From an uncultured Candidatus Saccharibacteria bacterium (lineage in GTDB: Bacteria > Patescibacteriota > Saccharimonadia > Saccharimonadales > 2-12-FULL-41-12), in the NCBI GenBank assembly GCA_964521095.1, contig CAZFPJ010000001.1:38974-102973 (forward strand): DNA of 64,000 nucleotides, written 5' to 3'. A program made the position numbers and the translations under genes. The notes under the pieces are model-generated. The model saw only the letters and a program-made list of their open reading frames with translations, did not search any database and was not told the DNA's origin. Shown here in pieces: positions 1-58,613 of the stretch; position 1 is the stretch's first letter; each line of letters begins with the position of its first letter.

Positions 1-136
1 AGTCGAGAATACAGTATATATATTACCCAACGAAGAGCACAGAGTATTGTTAAGTAGGCCCAACAACATTATCGGTGAACTTGTGGTAAGGCATATTAGC
101 CCCGATGACCCCAAAGTGACAATACGATAACTAAAT

Positions 137-2707
137 TTAGTTCGGTTTGTAGCTTAACAGATACTTCTTTATCTTGGGTTCGTCTCGTTTGCGCCAGGCT
201 ACTCTGGCTTCTATCTCCGAAAAAGCTACGGTGATATTGCGGTGTAGTGCCACAACTTTGAGCTTTGGTGTAAAGAATGTAACAAACTTTTCTTGCCACT
301 CGGGCGTGTTAAGCGGGCCAGCCGAATATGTAACAAAATGGTCAAAAGATTTGCTGTCGCCATAGATGCCCTCTAGCCGAGTCCAGTTTGTTGTTAACCA
401 GTCCCAGGCAAGCTCTCTGGTGTGTTTGTTTTGCATCAGATACGCATACCAGCGAAAGATGTCTTGTGGGCGCACAAAACCATCCTCTCCCAGACTGGCA
501 GTTATGATATGCTTTGCATCTTCTGTATTCTTAACGCGACAAATTCCTGCTGTTATAGCGTGCTGCACATCTGGGTTGGTAGAAGTTTTGTATTGATTCA
601 TGAGATCATCTAGGTCGGCTTGGCCACCTCGCACAGCAACGCCGACAATTAGGGCGCGATAATCGGCGGGTAAGTCCGCAACAGTTTTGGCTTTTTTATA
701 ACGGTTGATTGCTTCGTCGATTGCTATTTTATCTTGCCCGGATGTCATCAGAGCCACCATGGTGTGGCGCAGGTGCTTAGTGTTCGGGTCGTCAGAAACT
801 TGGTCATCCCAGCCAAGACTTGCAAACTGGTCTTTTGCCAGAGAAACACGGAGTCTACGCAGGGCTACCGCAGAGGCTTTATCGCCCTCTATAAGCCCAC
901 TCGCAAGACTAATTGTTCGACATATTAATGCCCATACGGCATCTCGAGGTTCGTGCGCACAACCTTCAATAATAGCCATAGAGTCTGCGACACTGGCATC
1001 TCCGCGCCGAGCCAAGAGGAGTTGATCGTTCAAGATGTTGATCCGTGACTCTGCTTTTACGGTCTGGTTGGCTATTGCTGTTGCTAAGAAATTCTTGTGG
1101 TCTTTGGTCGTATAGTTTGTTACAAAATGTCCGCTAGCAGATGTATTCAAAATAATTTCATTGGGCTTGGATATTTCAAACTCCGTAGTTTTTTGGTCTA
1201 GCAGTTCGATATTGAGCTCGGATTCCGCCAATAGTGGTATGGGCCAAAGGTATTTTGAATCCTTTTGGTCCAACACAAAACGCTCTTGCGACAGCATTAT
1301 CTTGTTGCCTTTGGCTCCCACAGACACAACAGGCATGCCAGATTGCTCTAGCCAGGGGCTCATAAGAGCGTTTATGTCTTTGCCACTAGCCTTTGATAGC
1401 TCTGTCCACAAGTCGTCCTTGGTTGTGTTTTTGTAGGCATGTTTCGAAAAATATGTTCTTAGGCCTTCTCGGAAAGCTTTTTCGCCAATGTAATCGAGGA
1501 GCATCTTGAGCAATCGTCCTCCTTTGGCATAGACAATCGCTGGGTCGAACAGGCTGTGGATCTCGTCGGGGTGGTTTACGGCAACTCGTACTGGCTGTAC
1601 GGCCTTGTAGATATCTCGGTTAGAAGCCGACAAAACATCCATGGTGACATATTGCTCCCACTGGTGCCAGTCTGGGTGAAGTCTGTCCAGGGCTACATGC
1701 TCCATCATGCTGGCAAAACTCTCGTTAAGCCATAAGTCGTCCCACCACTTCATGGTTACGAGGTTGCCAAACCATTGGTGGCTTAGCTCGTGCGCTACCA
1801 CCATAGATATATATTGCTCACTAGACAGCGAGCGGTTTTTAGGGTCCGTTAGCAAGGCGATCTCTCGGTAGGTTATAAGGCCCCAGTTTTCCATGGCACC
1901 ACTTTCGAAGTCGGGCAGGGCTACCTGGTCGACTTTTGGTAAAGGGAAGGGTGTGTCAAAGTAATCTTCAAAAAATTCTAGTACTTTTACTGCCTCTTCG
2001 TTAGCATATTGCATAAAGCTAAGCGGTTGCGCTACCGTGCCCCAGGTTTGCACCAGCTGGCCTGCTTTGGTCTTGGCTTTTACGGCGTGCATCTCGCCGG
2101 TTACAAAAGCTAGCAGATAGGTGCTCATCATTGGTGTAGTATCGAAGGTAGTTACGAGCTTACCGTTCGCTTCTTTTTGAGATTTGGCAGGGGTATTTCC
2201 AAGCACCACTTCACCTTTTTTGGTGGTTAGGGTGAGGTCAAAGGTGGCTTTGGCTTCGGGCTCGTCAATACAAGGGAAGACCTCGCGCGCGTGATGCGAC
2301 TCAAATTGGGTAGCCAGGAGCTTTTTCTTTTGTCCTTCATGCTCAAAGTAGCATGGATAGAGCCCATGCATTTGGTCGGTAATGCGCCCAGAAAATTCCA
2401 AAGTTATTTGGTATTGGCCTGGATAGACCATGTTTTTGCTGTGCAAGCGAACTTCGTCAAATTTGTTATGAGTGTTTATACGATCAACCTCGATAGCTTT
2501 TTGGTCTTTGCCAAGTTTCTCGAGCTTTGCGCTTGTAACCTTTAAGTCCTTTTGGTGCAGAGTGATGCGTTGGCTTGGCCGACCAGTCTTTTTGCCAATG
2601 ATTACTACAGACCCCGTAAAGGTCATGTTATCTGTGTTCGGGTGCAGAGATAGTCCGTAATGCTCGGGCTGAAAGTCCCGAAAGAGTCTTTTTACTGTTT
2701 TAGTCAT
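137..2707 (-). CDS. pepN: M1-family aminopeptidase N
   Basis: 856-aa ORF with the GAMENWG exopeptidase motif and HELSHQWFGNLVTMKWWDDLWLNE (HExxH-x18-E zinc site). Confidence 0.9.
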   Translation of the reverse strand: MTKTVKRLFRDFQPEHYGLSLHPNTDNMTFTGSVVIIGKKTGRPSQRITLHQKDLKVTSAKLEKLGKDQKAIEVDRINTHNKFDEVRLHSKNMVYPGQYQITLEFSGRITDQMHGLYPCYFEHEGQKKKLLATQFESHHAREVFPCIDEPEAKATFDLTLTTKKGEVVLGNTPAKSQKEANGKLVTTFDTTPMMSTYLLAFVTGEMHAVKAKTKAGQLVQTWGTVAQPLSFMQYANEEAVKVLEFFEDYFDTPFPLPKVDQVALPDFESGAMENWGLITYREIALLTDPKNRSLSSEQYISMVVAHELSHQWFGNLVTMKWWDDLWLNESFASMMEHVALDRLHPDWHQWEQYVTMDVLSASNRDIYKAVQPVRVAVNHPDEIHSLFDPAIVYAKGGRLLKMLLDYIGEKAFREGLRTYFSKHAYKNTTKDDLWTELSKASGKDINALMSPWLEQSGMPVVSVGAKGNKIMLSQERFVLDQKDSKYLWPIPLLAESELNIELLDQKTTEFEISKPNEIILNTSASGHFVTNYTTKDHKNFLATAIANQTVKAESRINILNDQLLLARRGDASVADSMAIIEGCAHEPRDAVWALICRTISLASGLIEGDKASAVALRRLRVSLAKDQFASLGWDDQVSDDPNTKHLRHTMVALMTSGQDKIAIDEAINRYKKAKTVADLPADYRALIVGVAVRGGQADLDDLMNQYKTSTNPDVQHAITAGICRVKNTEDAKHIITASLGEDGFVRPQDIFRWYAYLMQNKHTRELAWDWLTTNWTRLEGIYGDSKSFDHFVTYSAGPLNTPEWQEKFVTFFTPKLKVVALHRNITVAFSEIEARVAWRKRDEPKIKKYLLSYKPN

Positions 2708-2952: not shown

Positions 2953-3099
2953 CATGTACATTTGTAATGAAATTTAATAATAAAAAACGGCTCGTTTTGT
3001 ACTTGAGATCAGTACAAGGAAACGGCGAGGAACGGAGTAAAACATACATTGAGTATGTTGCACGAGTACCGAAGCCTGTTGACGCAGTAATGAGCCAGG

Positions 3100-3145
3100 A
3101 GCTTTAGCGGTGCAGGCAGACTGTGTCTGGCTGGCAGGCTAAAGC
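3100..3145 (+). promoter_or_regulatory. long leader hairpin immediately upstream of the nusA RBS
   Basis: GCTTTAGC (3101-3108) pairs with GCTAAAGC (3138-3145). It encloses CAGAC-TGT-GTCTG and is followed by the AAGGAG RBS and the ATG at 3164. Confidence 0.35.
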
Positions 3146-4857: not shown

Positions 4858-7320
4858 ATGATGCCATCGGCAGACTTTCAGGATTTTTTGAATCATTTGA
4901 CAGAAAATGCGCTAGCTAGTTTGCGCAATGCTGATGCTATTGCCCGTGGTCACGGTAGTTCATATGTTGGAACAGAACATCTGTTGTTAGGTGTTCTAGC
5001 ACAAGATTCTTCCATGGGCGCTAAGCTTTTAGACGGAGCAGGGGTAACTCTGCAAAAAGCTCGGTTGGCGCTCAACACTCCTCCCAGGGGATCTGGTGAG
5101 TTGGGGGCTAAAGGCCTCAGTGAGGTTGCAAAGCTTACGCTCAAGATGGCCTATGAGATTGCTAGAGATTTTGGCCAAGAATACTGTGGCACCGAACACA
5201 TACTGCACAGCATACTAGGTCAAAAAAATGCTAGAGCAACCGAAATGCTTCGATCTATGGGTGTCAATGTAGAACACCTAAATATAGAGCTAGAGCAATT
5301 TTTGAATAGGCAACAAACGCAGGGCCCGAGCGACATATCTACTGCGACCAAGAAGCGCAAAAAGAGTGCCCTCGATTTTTTTGGCACAGACTTAACGGAC
5401 AAAGCTGTCAAGGCAAAGCTTGACCCTGTGGTTGGGCGAGATGCTCAAATTGCTAGGATTATTACAATATTAAGTCGCAGAACCAAGAATAACCCAGTGC
5501 TCATTGGTGATCCGGGGGTTGGGAAAACGGCAATTGTCGAGGGGCTAGCCTCTAGAATTGTGGCCGAAGAAGTTCCAGACAATCTGCTTGGCAAACGAAT
5601 AGTAATGCTTGATCTTGCTGCCATGATTGCTGGCACAAAGTACCGTGGTGAGTTTGAGGAACGGCTTAAAAAAGTGATGGCAGAGCTAGAGAGCGACTCT
5701 AAGACAATAATTTTTGTTGACGAACTACACCTGATCGTTGGCGCAGGAGCCGCCGAGGGGGCTATGGACGCTGGTAATATGTTAAAGCCAGCGCTGGCGC
5801 GGGGCAAGATACAGCTTATTGGTGCTACTACCACCGATGAATATTCAAAATATGTTGAAAAAGACGCAGCACTAGAACGACGATTTCAGCCAGTTATAGT
5901 GCCAGAAGCTACCCCTAGCGAGACAGTCAACATATTAAAGGGTTTGCGCAAACACTACGAGAAGTTTCATAAAGTCAAAATTAGCGATGAAGTCATTGAC
6001 GACACGGTCCGGTTTGCTAGCCGGTATCTAAACGATCGTTTTATGCCAGACAAAGCCATCGACTTGCTCGATGAAGCATCGGCCCACCTGCGGGTGAATA
6101 AAGGCAAGACACCGTCAGAGCTCCGCAAGGCTCAGAAAGAACTCCGCTTGTTGCAGGTCCGCATAGAAGACGCGGCAACGGCCGAAAACTATGAATTGGC
6201 AGCAAAGTTTAAAACTAAAGCCAGTCAATTATCCAAAGATATTTTGAAGTTGCAAGCCAAACACAATGACGGCAGAGTTTTGAACTTATCTAGTGACGAT
6301 GTTGCTAATGTGGTGGCTAGGATTACCGGTGTGCCAGTGAACAAGGTCATTCGTAGCGAAGCCAAGTATCTCTTGAATCTAGAAAAAACTTTATCAAGCT
6401 ATATTATCGGCCAGGAGGAAGCGGTAGAGGCTGTCAGTAAGGCTGTTCGACGAAATCGTAGTGGCGTATCTGATGGCCGTCGCCCGATTGGTTCATTTGT
6501 TTTTCTTGGTCCAACCGGCGTTGGTAAAACAGAGCTTGCAAGGGTTTTGGCCCGAGAATTCTTTGGCTCCGAAGATAGTCTGATAAAGATAGACATGAGT
6601 GAATTTGGCGAACACCACAATGTGTCCAGACTCATGGGCGCGCCGGCTGGGTATGTTGGTTACGACGACGGAGGGCAGTTGACGGACAAAATTCGTAGAC
6701 AACCTTATAGTCTTGTCTTGTTTGACGAGATTGAAAAAGCCCACCCTGATGTGTTTAATATAATGTTACAGCTATTAGAGGATGGCCGGCTAACCGATGG
6801 TAAGGGTCGAGCGATAGACTTTAGTAACACCATTATAATCATGACTAGCAATATTGGCGCCGAGAAGTTACAGAAAGAGTCGGAGTTTGGCTTTTCCGCA
6901 GATACTAGCAAAGATCTTAATGACCTTGATCAACTGCACAAACGAAATCAAGAAAAGGTTTTCGCTGAGCTTAAGAAACTGATGCGCCCCGAGATGATTA
7001 ATCGAATCGACAAAGCTATAGTTTTCCGGTCGCTCACCAAGAGCGAGATCCAAAAGATTTTAGACATACAGATTGGTGAGTTGTCCGAGAGGCTATTGCG
7101 ACAAGGACTGGGGATTAAGCTAGATAAAAAAGCCAAGAAGCTTCTGATAGAAAAAGGGTATGATCCACAAAATGGGGTGCGCCCAATGCGCAGAGTTTTG
7201 CAGGACGAGATAGAAGACCCTATATCGGAGGCTCTGCTAGATGCGACCTACCAAAAAGGTACGGTTGTTTTGGTAAGCGCTCGCGCTAATAAACTAGTTT
7301 TCAGTTCGAACAAAGAATAA
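4858..7320 (+). CDS. clpC: ATP-dependent Clp protease ATP-binding subunit ClpC
   Basis: Clp_N repeats, two AAA+ modules (GDPGVGKT and GPTGVGKT) and a UVR-like linker. The ATG at 4858 follows GGAGAG; the TTG at 4834 in the ORF track is less likely. Confidence 0.92.
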
Positions 7321-17667: not shown

Positions 17668-18201
17668 ATGAGAGTTGTTGCAGGAAAACTTGGTGGGCAG
17701 AATTTTGAAGCCCCAAAAGGGCACAGAACGCATCCAATGAGCGAAAAGGCTCGGGGCGCGCTGTTTGCCTCTCTTGGTGATATAGAGGGTCTGACAGTTT
17801 TAGATTGCTTTTCTGGGAGCGGAGCGTTGTCTATCGAGGCTGTCAGCCGTGGTGCTACAGAGGTTGTGGCGGTAGAGCACGACATAAATGCCTACAAGAC
17901 TATCGCCAAAAACTATAAAAAACTAGGTATAGAAACTATCGCAAAAGCGATCAAGGCCAATGTGACTGGCTGGTCCAACCGGCACCCCAATACCGTATTT
18001 GATATTGTGCTTTGTGATCCTCCATATGACGACATTCAATACAAGATAATTCGCAAGGTGGCCCGCCATGTTAATGGCCAGGGTACATTAGTGCTATCTT
18101 TGCCTAGTAATCACGACACATTAACCCTAGAGGGGCTAGAAGTTGTCCTAAATAAAGATTATGGCGATGCCCAACTAGTTTTTTATAAAAAAATCGGGTA
18201 A
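17668..18201 (+). CDS. rsmD: 16S rRNA (guanine966-N2)-methyltransferase RsmD
   Basis: 177 aa with the RPT/HPMSEK N-terminus, FSGSGALSIEA and the DPPY motif. Confidence 0.85.
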   Translation: MRVVAGKLGGQNFEAPKGHRTHPMSEKARGALFASLGDIEGLTVLDCFSGSGALSIEAVSRGATEVVAVEHDINAYKTIAKNYKKLGIETIAKAIKANVTGWSNRHPNTVFDIVLCDPPYDDIQYKIIRKVARHVNGQGTLVLSLPSNHDTLTLEGLEVVLNKDYGDAQLVFYKKIG

Positions 18202-18228
18202 AATACTACAGTTAATTACCAAACCTGC

Positions 18229-18313
18229 GCGGATGTGGTGGAATTGGTAGACACGCTAGTCTTAGGAACTAGTGCCGCAAGGCGTGAAGGTTCAAGTCCT
18301 TTCATCCGCACCA
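18229..18313 (+). tRNA. tRNA-Leu(UAG), CCA encoded
   Basis: Acceptor GCGGATG/CATCCGC, anticodon loop CUUAGGA, long variable arm and T-arm GAAGG-TTCAAGT-CCTTT. Confidence 0.9.
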
Positions 18314-18376
18314 GACACGGCAGCTTCTTTTTGAAGCTGGCTTGTCTGGTATGATTAGACCAGACCCTAACACCCT

Positions 18377-18601
18377 AGGCGTGAAGGTGAGAACTGCCAG
18401 TGGCAGATCGCAAGGGAGTCAACTCTTGCAAATTTACTTACCAACGGTAAGCTTGTTTGCAAAGATGTTGCGACGGGTGAGATGAGCCAGTGGCTCATTG
18501 CAAGGACACTCAACAGATTTGAAGCTATGCTTCAAGTATGCTGATGTCGGGCCTGCAGGATGTAGGCGCCAGAATGTGACCAAGTCCTTTCATCCGCACC
18601 A
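18377..18601 (+). repeat. second copy of the tRNA-Leu 3' portion, split in the T-loop
   Basis: AGGCGTGAAGGT (18377-18388) equals 18280-18291. CAAGTCCTTTCATCCGCACCA (18581-18601) equals 18293-18313. The two halves are separated by 192 nt. No matching 5' acceptor strand (GCGGATG) is present. Confidence 0.8.
18389..18580 (+). ncRNA. candidate structured RNA inside the split tRNA-Leu T-loop copy
   Basis: Hairpins at 18394-18406, 18426-18462 (7 bp + 6 bp), 18482-18498 and 18519-18535. An internal ~38-nt repeat (18386-18423 vs 18476-18514) carries compensatory stem changes. Confidence 0.35.
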
Positions 18602-18618
18602 AAATCAGGATTTTTCAA

Positions 18619-19518
18619 ATGAAATTCTTTAAATCTTCATCAAAGAAAGAAAATCTAACCAGGACACAACGACTTAAGAGGATACTCAAAGTCGTTTTTT
18701 ATATTGTGTTTTGGTTGAGTGTATGGACTCCTATTGCCTGTATTATTGCACTGCCGATAGTGCTGACTCTACTGAATATATTCGAAAGAAATAATATGGC
18801 AACAGTAGCAACGCAGTCTAATATTTTGGTCGGAATTACATGTATGGCTGTGGCCTTGGTGTTTTTCGGCGCTATATGGCTTCTCCGCAATCGTAAGTCT
18901 TTGTTTATGAGAGTAGGTAGAAGTGTATTGCTTGTTTGTACATGGATTGGGCTAATTTTCGGAGTGGCTGTATTGGGCAGTACCGCTATGGATTCGCGTA
19001 AGCCCTCTACAGCGAACCAGACACAGCCATTGCCCTATCAGCTCCAGCAAAATCCAGAGCTCCTAGCGGTGACTAAAGAGGTCGGAGCTGTATATGTATC
19101 TGATTTAAATATGAGTTATGTTGACGGGTACGCCCAGGTAGACAGGAGAGGAGAATATAAGTATTTTAATGACGCGGCAGGCAAACCAATGCGTGGAGAT
19201 ATGACAATTAAAAAAGGTACCGTAGGTGATGAGCTGCGTCGATATGTTGCACATGAGTACTTGCATCATATTTGGTACACAAAACTGACTACTAGCGAAA
19301 AAGACTTGCTAACGAGCCATCTCATTGTAGCGTATGGCCAAGATTGGTATATGAAACAACGCACAAACAGTGGCTATGCTGACAGTGGAACGCTAGCGCC
19401 TACAGAATTGTTTTCTTTCTATTGCACGGAAGAGGCTGACAGATGGCTCCCCCAGCCAGTACTTGAACAGTGTAATAAGTATATTAATCGTAGTGTGCTT
19501 CAATTTAGTAGAACCTAG
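18619..19518 (+). CDS. polytopic membrane protein with an HExxH motif
   Basis: About four N-terminal TM segments followed by a soluble domain with VAHEYLHHIWYTKLTTSEK. The motif context resembles the ORF at 7352-8308. Confidence 0.7.
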   Translation: MKFFKSSSKKENLTRTQRLKRILKVVFYIVFWLSVWTPIACIIALPIVLTLLNIFERNNMATVATQSNILVGITCMAVALVFFGAIWLLRNRKSLFMRVGRSVLLVCTWIGLIFGVAVLGSTAMDSRKPSTANQTQPLPYQLQQNPELLAVTKEVGAVYVSDLNMSYVDGYAQVDRRGEYKYFNDAAGKPMRGDMTIKKGTVGDELRRYVAHEYLHHIWYTKLTTSEKDLLTSHLIVAYGQDWYMKQRTNSGYADSGTLAPTELFSFYCTEEADRWLPQPVLEQCNKYINRSVLQFSRT

Positions 19519-58074: not shown

Positions 58075-58225
58075 ATGCAGGGAGAGGGATTCGCCTCGCT
58101 TCCAGCGAGCCCGAAACTTCGCGATTGGCAAACTAGTTGCCATCGGAAGGTTTCCTTGCGAAATGCCACAGGCATTTCTCACCCCGAAGGCTTTCCCCTC
58201 GAGTGTTTGAATCTGTCCGGCCCAA
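58075..58225. other. hairpin-dense intergenic element (possible ncRNA, strand uncertain)
   Basis: Stems at 58095-58109 (CTCGCT/AGCGAG), 58126-58142 (TGGCAA/TTGCCA), 58145-58155, 58160-58178 (8 bp GAAATGCC/GGCATTTC) and 58183-58190 (a UUCG tetraloop on the minus strand). GAGGG (58084-58088) and CCCTC (58196-58200) close the element. Confidence 0.3.
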
Positions 58226-58227
58226 GC

Positions 58228-58249
58228 AAAAACCCCACAAGATGTGGGG
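58228..58249 (-). terminator. rho-independent terminator after the tRNA-Thr/tRNA-Tyr pair
   Basis: On the minus strand: CCCCACA-TCT-TGTGGGG followed by TTTTT. Confidence 0.75.
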
Positions 58250-58257
58250 CCATTGCT

Positions 58258-58343
58258 TGGTGCAGGGTGTAGGATTCGAACCTACGAAGGCATAAGCCGA
58301 CAGATTTACAGTCTGTTGTGTTTGACCGCTTCACTAACCCTGC
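58258..58343 (-). tRNA. tRNA-Tyr(GUA), CCA encoded
   Basis: Acceptor GCAGGGT/ACCCTGC, anticodon loop CUGUAAA, long variable arm and T-arm GTAGG-TTCGAAT-CCTAC. Confidence 0.9.
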
Positions 58344-58353
58344 GGAATATATC

Positions 58354-58371
58354 TGGAGCCACCTGTCGGAT
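58354..58371 (-). repeat. orphan copy of the last 18 nt of tRNA-Thr(UGU)
   Basis: TGGAGCCACCTGTCGGAT is identical to 58437-58454. It lies 10 nt upstream of the tRNA-Tyr 5' end on the minus strand. Confidence 0.85.
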
Positions 58372-58436
58372 ATCGCTTACGCTCCTTCCTGCGCTCCTCG
58401 TCCGCCGAACCTTCGGTTCTCATGCCGACGGGCTCG

Positions 58437-58513
58437 TGGAGCCACCTGTCGGATTCGAACCGACGACCCCCTGTTTACAAAACAGGTGCTCTAACCAGCT
58501 GAGCTAAGGTGGC
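58437..58513 (-). tRNA. tRNA-Thr(UGU), CCA encoded
   Basis: Acceptor GCCACCT/AGGTGGC, anticodon loop UUUGUAA and T-arm GTCGG-TTCGAAT-CCGAC. Confidence 0.92.
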
Positions 58514-58545: not shown

Positions 58546-58559
58546 AGCTGGTTAGAGCA
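58546..58559. repeat. inverted copy of the tRNA-Thr(UGU) D-arm segment
   Basis: AGCTGGTTAGAGCA is the exact reverse complement of 58487-58500, which lies inside the tRNA gene. Confidence 0.8.
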
Positions 58560-58593
58560 AAATACTTATTAATCTATTCTGCAGTAAACTGCG

Positions 58594-58613
58594 CCAGCTG
58601 AGCTAAGGTGGCA
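58594..58613 (-). repeat. orphan copy of the first ~19 nt of tRNA-Thr(UGU)
   Basis: CCAGCTGAGCTAAGGTGGCA is identical to 58495-58514. It lies 100 bp upstream of the gene on the minus strand. Confidence 0.85.

Follow-up and report, generated by a model that had tools for sequence, protein, structure and literature searches.

The window, that is, the whole 64-kb stretch of DNA analysed here, contains an intact tRNA-Leu(UAG) gene and, directly behind it, a composite element at 18314-18601. The tRNA gene is the source of every tRNA-derived piece of this element. The parts are as follows.

18229-18313, forward strand: intact tRNA-Leu(UAG), CCA encoded (ARAGORN; Rfam RF00005, 59.8 bits)
18310-18350, forward strand: long hairpin with 18-nt arms, ACCAGAC...GTCTGGT (inverted repeat I1)
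18347-18376, forward strand: decayed antisense copy of the tRNA-Leu 3' half, TGGT plus the complement of acceptor, T-arm and variable arm (alignment to the tRNA reverse complement)
18377-18388, forward strand: sense copy of tRNA-Leu positions ~43-54, i.e. variable-arm 3' strand, T-stem 5' strand and T54 (exact 12-mer repeat D3)
18386-18475, forward strand: module unit 1 (covariance model R1, 38.6 bits; nhmmer, model positions 1-73), with GGUGAGA, H1 (18391-18409), GCAAGG (18410-18415) and P2 (18414-18474), the latter with an extra loop hairpin (18437-18451)
18476-18567, forward strand: module unit 2, complete (R1, 67.1 bits, model positions 1-89), with H1 (18481-18499), P2 (18504-18548) and H3 (18549-18567)
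18568-18580, forward strand: displaced 3' part of unit 1 H3, GCCAGAAUGUGAC (compared with the single-unit H3, GGGGTCGC-AGAA-TGTGACC)
18581-18601, forward strand: sense copy of tRNA-Leu positions 56-76, i.e. rest of T-loop, T-stem 3' strand, acceptor 3' strand, discriminator and CCA (exact 21-mer repeat D2)

The second 3'-half copy behind tRNA-Leu(UAG), described in an earlier note on this DNA, is borne out by two exact repeats, the 12-mer AGGCGTGAAGGT at 18280-18291 and 18377-18388 and the 21-mer CAAGTCCTTTCATCCGCACCA at 18293-18313 and 18581-18601. The 192-nt insert (18389-18580) lies exactly in the T-loop of this copy, as the note had it, and stands in place of T55; the flanking pieces 18377-18388 and 18581-18601 pair with each other as closing T-stem. 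Between the two 21-nt repeats there are 267 nt without an ORF. The hairpin at 18310-18350 links the ACCA end of tRNA-Leu to the TGGT opening the antisense copy, and would be the fold-back axis of the element. In other loci the same position is occupied by a terminator composed of A-tract, hairpin and T-tract. Here, no terminator is called and no T-tract follows the hairpin, so that read-through from tRNA-Leu probably carries transcription into the element. The antisense copy, taken alone, is a weak match to the tRNA-Leu reverse complement (score 20, z 0.9), and it is assigned as such because the same feature is found in most of 57 canonical loci.

Two repeats placed 90 nt apart had also been reported. 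Repeats of 30 nt each, 80% identical and with compensatory stem changes, are indeed present at 18386-18415 and 18476-18505, but they are really H1 of two complete modules of ~88 nt. Unit 1 is broken after CGACGG by unit 2, which is nested in it at GGGGT^CGC; comparison of a single-unit locus (L070) with a double-unit locus (L052) gives the same insertion point. The stretch 18314-18601 is thus a nested double copy of a ~88-nt non-coding module. The motif has 3 matches in the window, as against 0.00 expected from shuffles, and the region folds with z = -4.4 (the opposite strand equally, z = -4.5). An identical sequence is present in independent Logan assemblies from two sequencing runs, and the element is therefore no assembly artefact; the contig of a third run stops before the element. 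The observation at this locus is confirmed as real, far from chance and no one-off, and the interpretation first given to it is partly supported.

ARAGORN and Rfam (E<=10) call nothing in 18314-18601, the only tRNA call at this locus being 18229-18313. A 5' acceptor strand is lacking, as noted before, and neither program finds a second tRNA or tmRNA. Nothing in 18314-18601 is able to pair with CATCCGC, and a tmRNA or tRNA-like molecule with a distant 5' acceptor strand was rejected for want of a complementary strand as well as of a call. The Rfam scan proposed in the note (Rfam 15; gathering scan of the window and E<=10 scan of 18100-18800) yields no family for the element. A T-box-like pairing of GGUG with CACC was discarded too: the GGU is the copied G52-G53-T54, and many host tRNAs have no CACCA end.

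Three elements of this kind are present in the window, at tRNA-Leu, tRNA-Tyr and tRNA-Thr(UGU). The features of the latter two are listed below.

58258-58343, reverse strand: intact tRNA-Tyr(GUA) (ARAGORN, Rfam)
58076-58251, reverse strand: second element of the same family, behind tRNA-Tyr (R1, 93.1 bits; terminator call; alignments), with terminator (58251-58228), antisense copy (58224-58189), sense piece (58188-58181) and module (58183-58094)
58093-58076, reverse strand: decayed copy of the tRNA-Tyr 3' end, part of the same element
58437-58513, reverse strand: intact tRNA-Thr(UGU) (ARAGORN, Rfam)
58354-58436, reverse strand: mini element between tRNA-Thr and tRNA-Tyr, without terminator (compared with family II inserts), with antisense copy (58436-58413), GGTTCG (58411-58406) and 34-nt insert (58405-58372)
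58371-58354, reverse strand: exact copy of the last 18 nt of tRNA-Thr, part of the mini element
58546-58612, reverse strand: sense/antisense/sense arrangement without module on the 5' side of tRNA-Thr(UGU), with the first 19 nt of tRNA-Thr in sense (58612-58594), filler, and an antisense D-arm piece (58558-58546)

The similar, weaker arrangement suspected at tRNA-Thr(UGU) is real; its 34-nt insert is of a different, family II-like type. The full module behind tRNA-Tyr and the antisense copy at 18347-18376 are additions to the first description.

Homologues, which the note proposed to look for, are numerous. A pattern scan detected the module in at least 118 stretches, all but a few of which carry Saccharibacteria or Saccharimonadales in their record titles and come from metagenome-assembled genomes. 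Searching ~0.89 Mb of these loci with R1 gave 157 module copies. A tRNA is found within 400 nt of 120 copies; of the others, 32 are at locus edges, and those inspected among the remaining 5 sit in tRNA fragments. The distance from module start to tRNA clusters at 64-89 nt. About 20 or more tRNA identities serve as hosts, each element carrying copies of its own neighbouring tRNA, and more than half of the tRNA genes in the sampled loci are flanked by such elements, a frequency biased upward since the homologous loci were chosen by pattern match. The module thus represents a Saccharibacteria-wide family residing almost exclusively in tRNA-derived DNA beside intact tRNA genes, and the locus-specific novel ncRNA considered before is rather one nested double member of a phylum-wide family.

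Usually the intact tRNA is followed by a hairpin or terminator, a decayed antisense copy of its last ~35 nt, a sense piece (~40-54), the module, and a sense piece (56-76) with CCA, the module being situated between T54 and C56. Tandem arrays of units are found in L100, L076 and L119. Modules are further present upstream of tRNAs, where they occupy the D, anticodon, variable or T loop of 5' pseudo-copies of almost full length. With few exceptions among the cases examined, the module is on the same strand as the host tRNA sequence. The Rfam gathering scan of 18 related loci returned only tRNA, rRNA and RNase P. That the module might be a piece of rRNA or RNase P RNA was rejected, as there are no matches inside those genes in L078 and L073. 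Full-text literature searches found no description of the module, and the ~88-nt element is apparently undescribed so far.

The module consists of (GG)U-GA, H1 (8 bp, NGU loop), GCAAG, P2 (a long variable hairpin), GG and H3, i.e. of three helices, the whole being closed by the T-stem of the partial tRNA copy. In the consensus, the T-stem directly abuts H1, with 4-5 unpaired nucleotides on the 3' side only. Double changes are seen in 25 of 37 pairs in one analysis and in 25 of 31 in another. Paired cells amount to 96.3%, compared with 72% in shuffles and 27-44% when partner columns are slid. On the tRNA-sense strand G·U exceeds A·C by 8 to 1 (177 vs 21). The junction nucleotides GUGAGA, GCAAGG and CGGG are invariant, and one G·U pair is conserved. 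The fold is under strong selection on the tRNA-sense strand; selection on RNA structure, argued for earlier, is thereby corroborated by both covariation and strand asymmetry. The module represents a new family of RNA-like structures that is well supported and fit for Rfam-style curation.

Such features invite the explanation that the module is a functional tRNA-linked ncRNA domain, closed by the T-stem, transcribed by read-through from the tRNA promoter and acting as RNA. It might form a four-way junction binding a protein or ligand, serve as a 3'-trailer for tRNA maturation or stability, or act as a decoy for T-arm-binding enzymes or toxins; the tRNA flanks would be its closing stem, perhaps also processing signals, and turnover of copies would be tolerable, the function being a collective one. 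The very strong covariation, the invariant junction nucleotides with the conserved G·U pair, and the strand asymmetry all suit an RNA, and so does the missing T-tract behind the tRNA-Leu hairpin. There is no terminator between tRNA-Thr and tRNA-Tyr, so that the mini element lying between them must be co-transcribed. Elements are kept in very small, streamlined genomes, and the module is conserved to a degree comparable to tRNA across genomes with ~49% RecG identity. Subtypes are 90-95% identical across such genomes, and lineages as divergent as these have an element at tRNA-Leu(UAG); both observations would also fit a strongly constrained functional RNA.

The distribution among relatives speaks against this explanation. 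The empty sites which the note proposed to look for are present in related genomes. The closest relative (L122; RsmD 75% identical) has an empty site despite an identical tRNA-Leu (85/85), L123 is likewise empty, and L124 has nothing within the available 94 nt. In L125 the same tRNA is accompanied by two units belonging to other families. Four loci (L121, L116, L043, L023) have RecG or HisRS in common with the window beside tRNA-Leu(UAG), and their P2 subtypes differ. Presence, copy number and subtype thus turn over between related genomes. Occupation of one tRNA by different subtypes or even families likewise argues against a functional domain, and modules in the anticodon and D loops of truncated pseudo-tRNAs, or nested in each other, are hard to rationalise as design. 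Besides, a canonical terminator precedes most copies, and the acceptor/CCA end and antisense copy decay freely. We regard a functional ncRNA as a serious competitor, if on balance the less likely explanation.

Further signs of mobility come from nested insertion at the same GGT^C motif, observed in ~11 loci, and from L036, where a derived variant (GCATT-CAGG) occurs at two tRNAs of one genome: one copy interrupts a tRNA-Pro pseudo-copy in its D-arm, the other, 94% identical, a partial tRNA-His copy in its T-loop. Dispersed copies have a median identity of 0.69 within a genome and 0.68 between genomes, and there is therefore no sign of recent bursts. No mobilising enzyme and no autonomous version with an ORF was found; an ORF inside P2 or H3 was considered for the latter, but the partial model matches proved to be nested double units or inserts of other families. 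A Y1 (HUH) transposase or RAYT domain is absent from the neighbouring ORFs examined (8-kb genome pieces). The module begins with GGTGAGA and ends with GTGAC(C) or GGTAGG(TC); these ends are not inverted repeats, and there is no clear target-site duplication. Instead of duplication, the junctions exhibit loss of T55 or GGT microhomology. H1 and H3 are located at the two ends of the module and the target is approximately GG(T)^(T)C, with a spacing unlike that of IS608-type ends.

The tRNA-derived flanks are preserved less well than the module. Antisense copies in the 57 canonical loci have a median identity of 23/35, compared with 7.8 for shuffles. Their mismatches are AT-biased (G/C to A/T), T positions (complement of A) being the least changed. 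In 19 of the 57 loci the 3' copy no longer has its acceptor part, while the module there still scores above 90 bits. The turn-around point lies ~33-38 nt from the 3' end, an approximate value, as palindromes make the automated mapping noisy. The antisense copy was also considered as a functional partner of the 3' copy; this was rejected, the acceptor part being the least conserved and the changes AT-biased rather than wobble-preserving. Nor did it display the adenine-specific differences of a diversity-generating retroelement, and such an origin was dismissed.

Direct repeats extending from T-loop to CCA are the textbook footprint of integration at tRNA genes, and the 21-nt repeats might accordingly be read as attL and attR of a degraded element with a T-loop-to-CCA core, as the note had also considered. 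In L019, two units even flank a 2.6-kb segment encoding a LexA-like S24 peptidase. No recombinase was found there, however, and in the window the short interval between the repeats holds neither integrase nor cargo. The module occurs at ~20 tRNA identities, each with its cognate repeat, which a single attP cannot supply. An integrase would not account for the additional 12-nt repeat 5' of the insert or for the antisense copy, nor for modules that precede tRNAs or occupy D, anticodon and variable loops, and comparisons with phages, plasmids and viral contigs gave no match. Among the examined candidates for kb-scale islands flanked by repeats only L019 resembles one (L017 and L111 merely have second tRNAs with similar ends), and no decayed end of a larger island was seen at the window locus. 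A classical integrase scar is thus very improbable.

Alternatively, the module could be, or have been, a small tRNA intron, the partial copies representing dead intron-bearing genes which were replaced by intron-less ones through duplication or a foreign allele. Insertion points coincide with the cloverleaf loops (D, anticodon, variable, T), the 5' pseudo-copies are almost complete, and in L011 and L040 the interrupted copy is an internally consistent allele different from the adjoining intact tRNA, which suggests gene replacement. Patescibacteria are, moreover, rich in tRNA introns (PMC13011429). Once the module is removed in silico, however, ARAGORN calls a tRNA in only 4 of ~120 copies, and each of the three restored calls inspected lacks a proper acceptor 3' end and lies beside an intact copy. 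A module within a sole-copy tRNA was not seen in the sampled loci, and the 3' halves in which most copies reside never possessed a 5' half. Rfam gives neither a group I nor a group II signal (group I core: no match at E<=10 in 18100-18800), the consensus structure has no bulge-helix-bulge motif, and a module of 88 nt is far below known self-splicing introns. An intron-like origin appears improbable.

We favour the explanation that the module is a structure-dependent miniature mobile element targeting GGT^(T)C in tRNA loops, accompanied by fold-back duplication which preserves an intact tRNA, and assign it a probability of roughly 0.45. The module would be the selfish mobile part, copies of which are inserted at GG(T)^(T)C in single-stranded, folded sequence of tRNA genes. 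Its main target would be the T-loop between T54 and C56, with D, anticodon and variable loops as further ones; insertion into the GGGGT^CGC stem of a second module would give nested doubles like the one in the window. Interruption of a single-copy tRNA gene would be lethal, so that the persisting copies would be those left with an intact tRNA and a spare, module-bearing partial copy. Reconstructed from its end products, fold-back or template-switch synthesis could leave precisely this combination; one strand switch at the hairpin behind the tRNA and a second ~35 nt from the CCA end would produce the sense-antisense-sense order. The spare tRNA pieces (antisense copy, acceptor end) would then decay, with module and closing stem being kept. 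The hairpins are presumably required by the mobilising machinery or in the strand-switching step, and the intermediate could be ssDNA or RNA.

A more speculative extension, which we consider unlikely, is a new class of mobile RNA or ssDNA element specialised on tRNA loops, protein-less or moved by an as yet unrecognised enzyme, whose conserved four-way-junction fold itself carries the activity and whose spread drives phylum-wide fold-back duplication, even replacement, of tRNA genes. The four-way junction may be a small ribozyme or a guide scaffold using the adjoining tRNA-identical flank.

Saccharibacteria genomes are among the smallest bacterial ones; notwithstanding, these elements are a major overlooked feature of their tRNA loci. 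If mobile, they would be rare elements aimed at the universally conserved T-loop and reshaping essential single-copy genes by partial duplications, antisense copies, tandem arrays and allele replacement, and both the mechanics of template switching and tRNA-gene turnover would become directly testable. If functional, they would constitute a new kind of tRNA-linked RNA. In practice, partial tRNA copies can mislead tRNA annotation and integration-site prediction.

With att-site duplications the elements share the direct repeat of the tRNA 3' end from T-loop to CCA and the intact tRNA at one junction, but they are only ~180-290 nt long without integrase or cargo, place one insert at ~20 tRNA identities with a cognate repeat each, and possess an extra 5' repeat (~40-54), an antisense copy and a covarying folded insert. 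Like REP/BIME, Correia, RUP, BOX, Rickettsia palindromic elements and IS200/IS605-derived palindrome-associated elements, they are short, non-coding and multi-copy, with several subfamilies per genome, compensatory hairpin changes, possible nesting, fixed orientation to the target, and hairpins near both ends without long terminal inverted repeats. They differ from these in residing in tRNA-derived sequence only, mainly at T54/C56, in the sense-antisense-sense triplication of the tRNA 3' half, and in having neither a linked transposase (Y1, RAYT, DDE) nor target-site duplication. Many short non-coding copies (157 in 0.89 Mb of loci; 3 units in the window) are reminiscent of MITEs, from which the module is set apart by its lack of terminal inverted repeats and target-site duplication. 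Related inserts in D, anticodon, variable and T loops of many tRNAs are also known from the mobile non-canonical tRNA introns of Thermoproteales, and the host lineage is rich in tRNA introns, as the group I introns of Patescibacteria tRNAs attest (PMC13011429). The Patescibacteria introns treated in that paper are anticodon-loop introns only, and bacterial tRNA group I introns measure 184-894 nt (PMC13011429). In contrast to tRNA introns, the module is just 88 nt long and resides in truncated copies beside an intact gene, has no bulge-helix-bulge or group I core, and its removal restores no tRNA.

A further parallel in arrangement is offered by fold-back and template-switch rearrangements, which yield inverted triplications (DUP-TRP/INV-DUP). 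The order of sense, antisense and sense copies is the same, with one turn-around at a palindrome, here the terminator hairpin, and a second at microhomology. Unlike these rearrangements, the arrangement described here is bound to one particular inserted module and is a systematic, recurrent feature of dozens of tRNA genes from many genomes.

The tRNA-Leu(UAG) gene of the window is followed by a second, partial copy of itself. The 12-mer AGGCGTGAAGGT, which covers tRNA-Leu positions about 43-54, occurs again as an exact copy at 18377-18388, and the 21-mer CAAGTCCTTTCATCCGCACCA, reaching from C56 to CCA, at 18581-18601; between these two repeats, T55 of the copy is replaced by 192 nt. The 5' acceptor strand is absent from the copy, and no second tRNA, tmRNA or known family was detected downstream of the tRNA by ARAGORN or by Rfam, even at E<=10. 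An earlier note, made from the sequence alone, had described a tRNA-Leu followed by a second 3'-half copy with a 192-nt T-loop insert and no 5' acceptor strand, and the exact repeats together with the ARAGORN and Rfam results prove this description correct. The two covarying internal repeats it reported do differ by compensatory changes in their stems; these 30-nt sequences (18386-18415 and 18476-18505) are in fact H1 hairpins of two copies, or units, of a folded non-coding module of about 88 nt (family I, with helices H1, P2 and H3). The Leu element, present in identical form in two independent assemblies, is a nested double with unit 2 inside unit 1:

18229-18313: tRNA-Leu(UAG), located by ARAGORN and Rfam
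18310-18350: long hairpin linking the ACCA end of tRNA-Leu to the antisense copy
18386-18475: unit 1, matching model positions 1-73 and broken after CGACGG by unit 2
18476-18567: unit 2, complete (67 bits)
18568-18580: displaced 3' part of H3 of unit 1

The stretch 18347-18376, missed in the earlier note, appears to be an antisense copy, now decayed, of the tRNA-Leu 3' half. Antisense similarity to tRNA-Leu is weak by itself within the window (z 0.9); this reading is suggested by recurrence of the same feature across the family.

A third match in the window to the degenerate pattern GGTGAGA-N4-CC-N-GTGG-N4-T-N-GCAAGG (none expected by chance) lies after tRNA-Tyr on the minus strand, and a mini element between tRNA-Thr(UGU) and tRNA-Tyr represents another insert family in the same architecture. 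The tRNA-Leu hairpin has no T-tract after it and no promoter was predicted before the next ORF in the window, and the genes of the tRNA cluster that contains the mini element have no terminator between them; therefore at least some copies must be transcribed. This next ORF (299 aa, no Pfam family; 18619-19518, plus strand) starts 18 nt past the Leu element and may be co-transcribed through it, because no promoter-like site is predicted between it and the tRNA. On the 5' side of tRNA-Thr(UGU), at 58546-58612 (minus strand), a sense copy of the first 19 nt, short hairpin filler and an antisense D-arm piece display the same sense-antisense-sense logic without a module.

The general architecture was derived from an alignment of 57 canonical loci. 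Behind an intact tRNA with encoded CCA stands a hairpin whose palindrome extends as far as the CCA; in most cases it is a terminator made of A-tract, stem and T-tract. Next come TGG and a diverged antisense copy of the last ~35 nt of the same tRNA, then a sense copy of tRNA positions about 40-54, the ~88-nt insert, and a sense copy of positions 55/56-76 with CCA. The antisense copy matches its local tRNA specifically, as at related loci L052 (Pro) and L079 (Glu) from other genomes, with median identity of 23/35 compared with 7.8 for shuffled sequence. The order of segments is therefore that of a triplicated tRNA 3' half (sense, antisense, sense) whose third copy carries the insert in its T-loop. 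By approximate mapping, the turn-around falls some 33-38 nt before the 3' end, in class I as in class II tRNAs. Whole units (3' tRNA copy, terminator, antisense copy, sense piece, insert) form tandem arrays in L100 (1-700; 194-nt period, about 2.5 units), L076 (about 6800-7000), L119 and L059, with the terminator duplicated past the last copy. Nested doubles occur in about 11 loci; comparison of single-unit L070 with double-unit L052 places the second unit at GGGGT^CGC, which matches the GGT^(T)C motif of the T-loop site. Two tRNA-Lys(CUU)-derived units in L019 (2815-5795) surround a 2.6-kb segment that codes for a LexA-like S24 peptidase protein and also contains three ORFs without Pfam match; the segment may be a small island captured between units.

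Alignment of 41 units revealed invariant blocks GGUGAGA, GCAAGG and CGGG, and in the consensus fold H1, P2 and H3 radiate from a junction that the T-stem closes. This MAFFT alignment, independent of the model, contains double compensatory changes in 25 of 37 pairs. It agrees with an alignment of 113 copies that was fitted to the model, which favours structure, and in which 96.3% of cells are paired (71.9% when shuffled, 27-44% with partner columns slid), double changes affect 25 of 31 pairs and the covariation score is 0.62 versus about 0.07 in slid controls. Because G·U pairs outnumber A·C pairs (177 versus 21) and one G·U pair is kept in 92 of 112 sequences, the folding strand is the tRNA-sense strand, as RNA or single-stranded DNA. 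P2 exists in at least four sequence types, each 90-95% identical across genomes.

A scan for the pattern across bacteria and archaea, with each species represented by one genome, yielded at least 118 stretches. Almost all matches listed are metagenome-assembled and labelled Candidatus Saccharibacteria, Saccharimonadales or unclassified Patescibacteria, a distribution that assigns the window itself to a Saccharibacterium. The sole cyanobacterium-labelled match among those listed, a 2.4-kb Calothrix metagenome contig (L012, JANNFJ010000648.1) with a typical module, has probably been mis-binned and would belong to Saccharibacteria. The motif starts 62-88 nt past a same-strand tRNA gene in about 60 of the listed loci, and is found downstream of tRNAs for Leu, Tyr, Lys, Gln, Ala, Val, Ser, His, Gly, Pro, Met, Arg, Glu and Cys. 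R1, a covariance model based on nothing but the module, detected 137 copies at E<0.01 in 757 kb, and an nhmmer search with a profile of the module found 157 across about 0.89 Mb of loci. Of these 157, 120 lie at most 400 nt from an ARAGORN tRNA and 32 of the remaining 37 at locus edges; those inspected among the five left over are within tRNA fragments. For 151 tRNAs with enough flank, a module was found within 320 nt downstream in 68 cases, upstream in 27 and on neither side in 61, frequencies that are inflated because the loci were picked by pattern match. Twenty-four of the 61 module-free tRNAs have their own partial sense copy downstream, mostly of the 3' end at about +150-185, and those inspected carry other insert families in the same architecture. 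At least three such families share it: II (L076, L111, L045, L028, L049), III (L119) and IV (L084, L088, L035, L045, L125). Families III and IV have an H1-like hairpin in common, and family IV contains CCUUGC, the complement of the family I invariant GCAAGG.

In a second arrangement, the module is carried by a 5'-anchored pseudo-copy of the adjacent tRNA, upstream of its intact gene, and the GG^ site that it occupies varies: it lies in the T-loop (L033, L004, L024, L118, L080), variable loop (L011, L078), anticodon loop (L087, L073) or at the 3' side of the D-arm (L107, L056). These pseudo-copies end before the acceptor 3' strand, often next to a short antisense T-loop piece. The one in L078 (module at 3038-3128) is a tRNA-Ala pseudo-copy in the 16S-23S rRNA spacer, just upstream of intact tRNA-Ala and tRNA-Ile. 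The interrupted copies in L011 (about 5420-5750) and L040 (about 1-330, minus strand) are different alleles from the adjoining intact tRNA, with their own matching stems, and it looks like the resident tRNA gene was replaced by an imported copy; a 3' remnant of the old allele is present past the intact gene in L011. Modules interrupting tRNA sequences might be taken for intron relics. This fits poorly, since of about 120 copies only 4 were called as a tRNA by ARAGORN once the module had been removed in silico, and the three of these inspected are truncated and adjoin an intact gene.

In L121, L116, L043 and L023, tRNA-Leu(UAG) adjoins RecG (49-57% identical), with RsmD or HisRS where detected, and each locus has a family I element, with differing P2 types or unit numbers. 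Closer relatives were obtained by a metagenome scan with RsmD. In L122 (RsmD 75% identical, tRNA-Leu identical at 85/85) the tRNA is followed just by a plain terminator; L123 (63%) lacks an element, as does L124 (54%) within the 94 nt present, and two units of other families stand in tandem in L125 (56%). Because L122 and L123 are empty and L125 is differently occupied, the element is dispensable for tRNA-Leu(UAG) and is gained, lost or replaced. Gene order around this tRNA is fluid; L122, the closest relative, has a 202-aa ORF (482-1090, minus strand) in the RsmD to tRNA-Leu interval, which is only 27 nt long in the window.

Dispersed copies within a genome generally resemble each other no better than copies from separate genomes do (median identity 0.69 versus 0.68). 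The one clear exception is L036, where two copies share a derived variant at 94% identity, one in a tRNA-Pro pseudo-copy (D-arm) and one in a partial copy of tRNA-His (T-loop), which is direct evidence for copying from one tRNA context to another. Mismatches between antisense copies and the tRNA complement are biased from G/C to A/T and show no adenine-specific signature. In 26 of the 57 loci the 3' sense copy is still perfect (21/21); in 19 the acceptor/CCA part is gone (15/21 or fewer). As modules at the latter still score above 90 bits, selection retains the module and its closing stem, not tRNA mimicry.

An insertion process behind the module's distribution is indicated by insertions that are nested or at many sites, by orthologous sites that are empty or occupied differently, and by the derived variant that two copies share. 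Covariation specific to one strand points to a folded, single-stranded intermediate that is important to the element. On both grounds we favour the view that the module is a structure-dependent miniature mobile element targeting GG(T)^(T)C in tRNA loops. Judging from the end products, the sense-antisense-sense duplication would be a footprint of fold-back or template-switch synthesis sparing the intact tRNA. Against mobility count the little sign of recent bursts and a degree of conservation that equals the tRNA's own; moreover, neither inverted terminal repeats nor target-site duplication were found at the module, and no mobilising enzyme was found. Because of these points, a functional tRNA-linked RNA remains a serious rival. 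Classical integrase scars fit poorly.

The module had no match in Rfam 15, viral contigs, or phage or plasmid records, and full-text literature searches found no description of it. We place the family among the small structured mobile repeats, as a new version of them; there is a real possibility that it stands farther apart. The one related report describes group I introns in Patescibacteria tRNAs, which differ in lying only in the anticodon loop and measuring 184-894 nt (PMC13011429).
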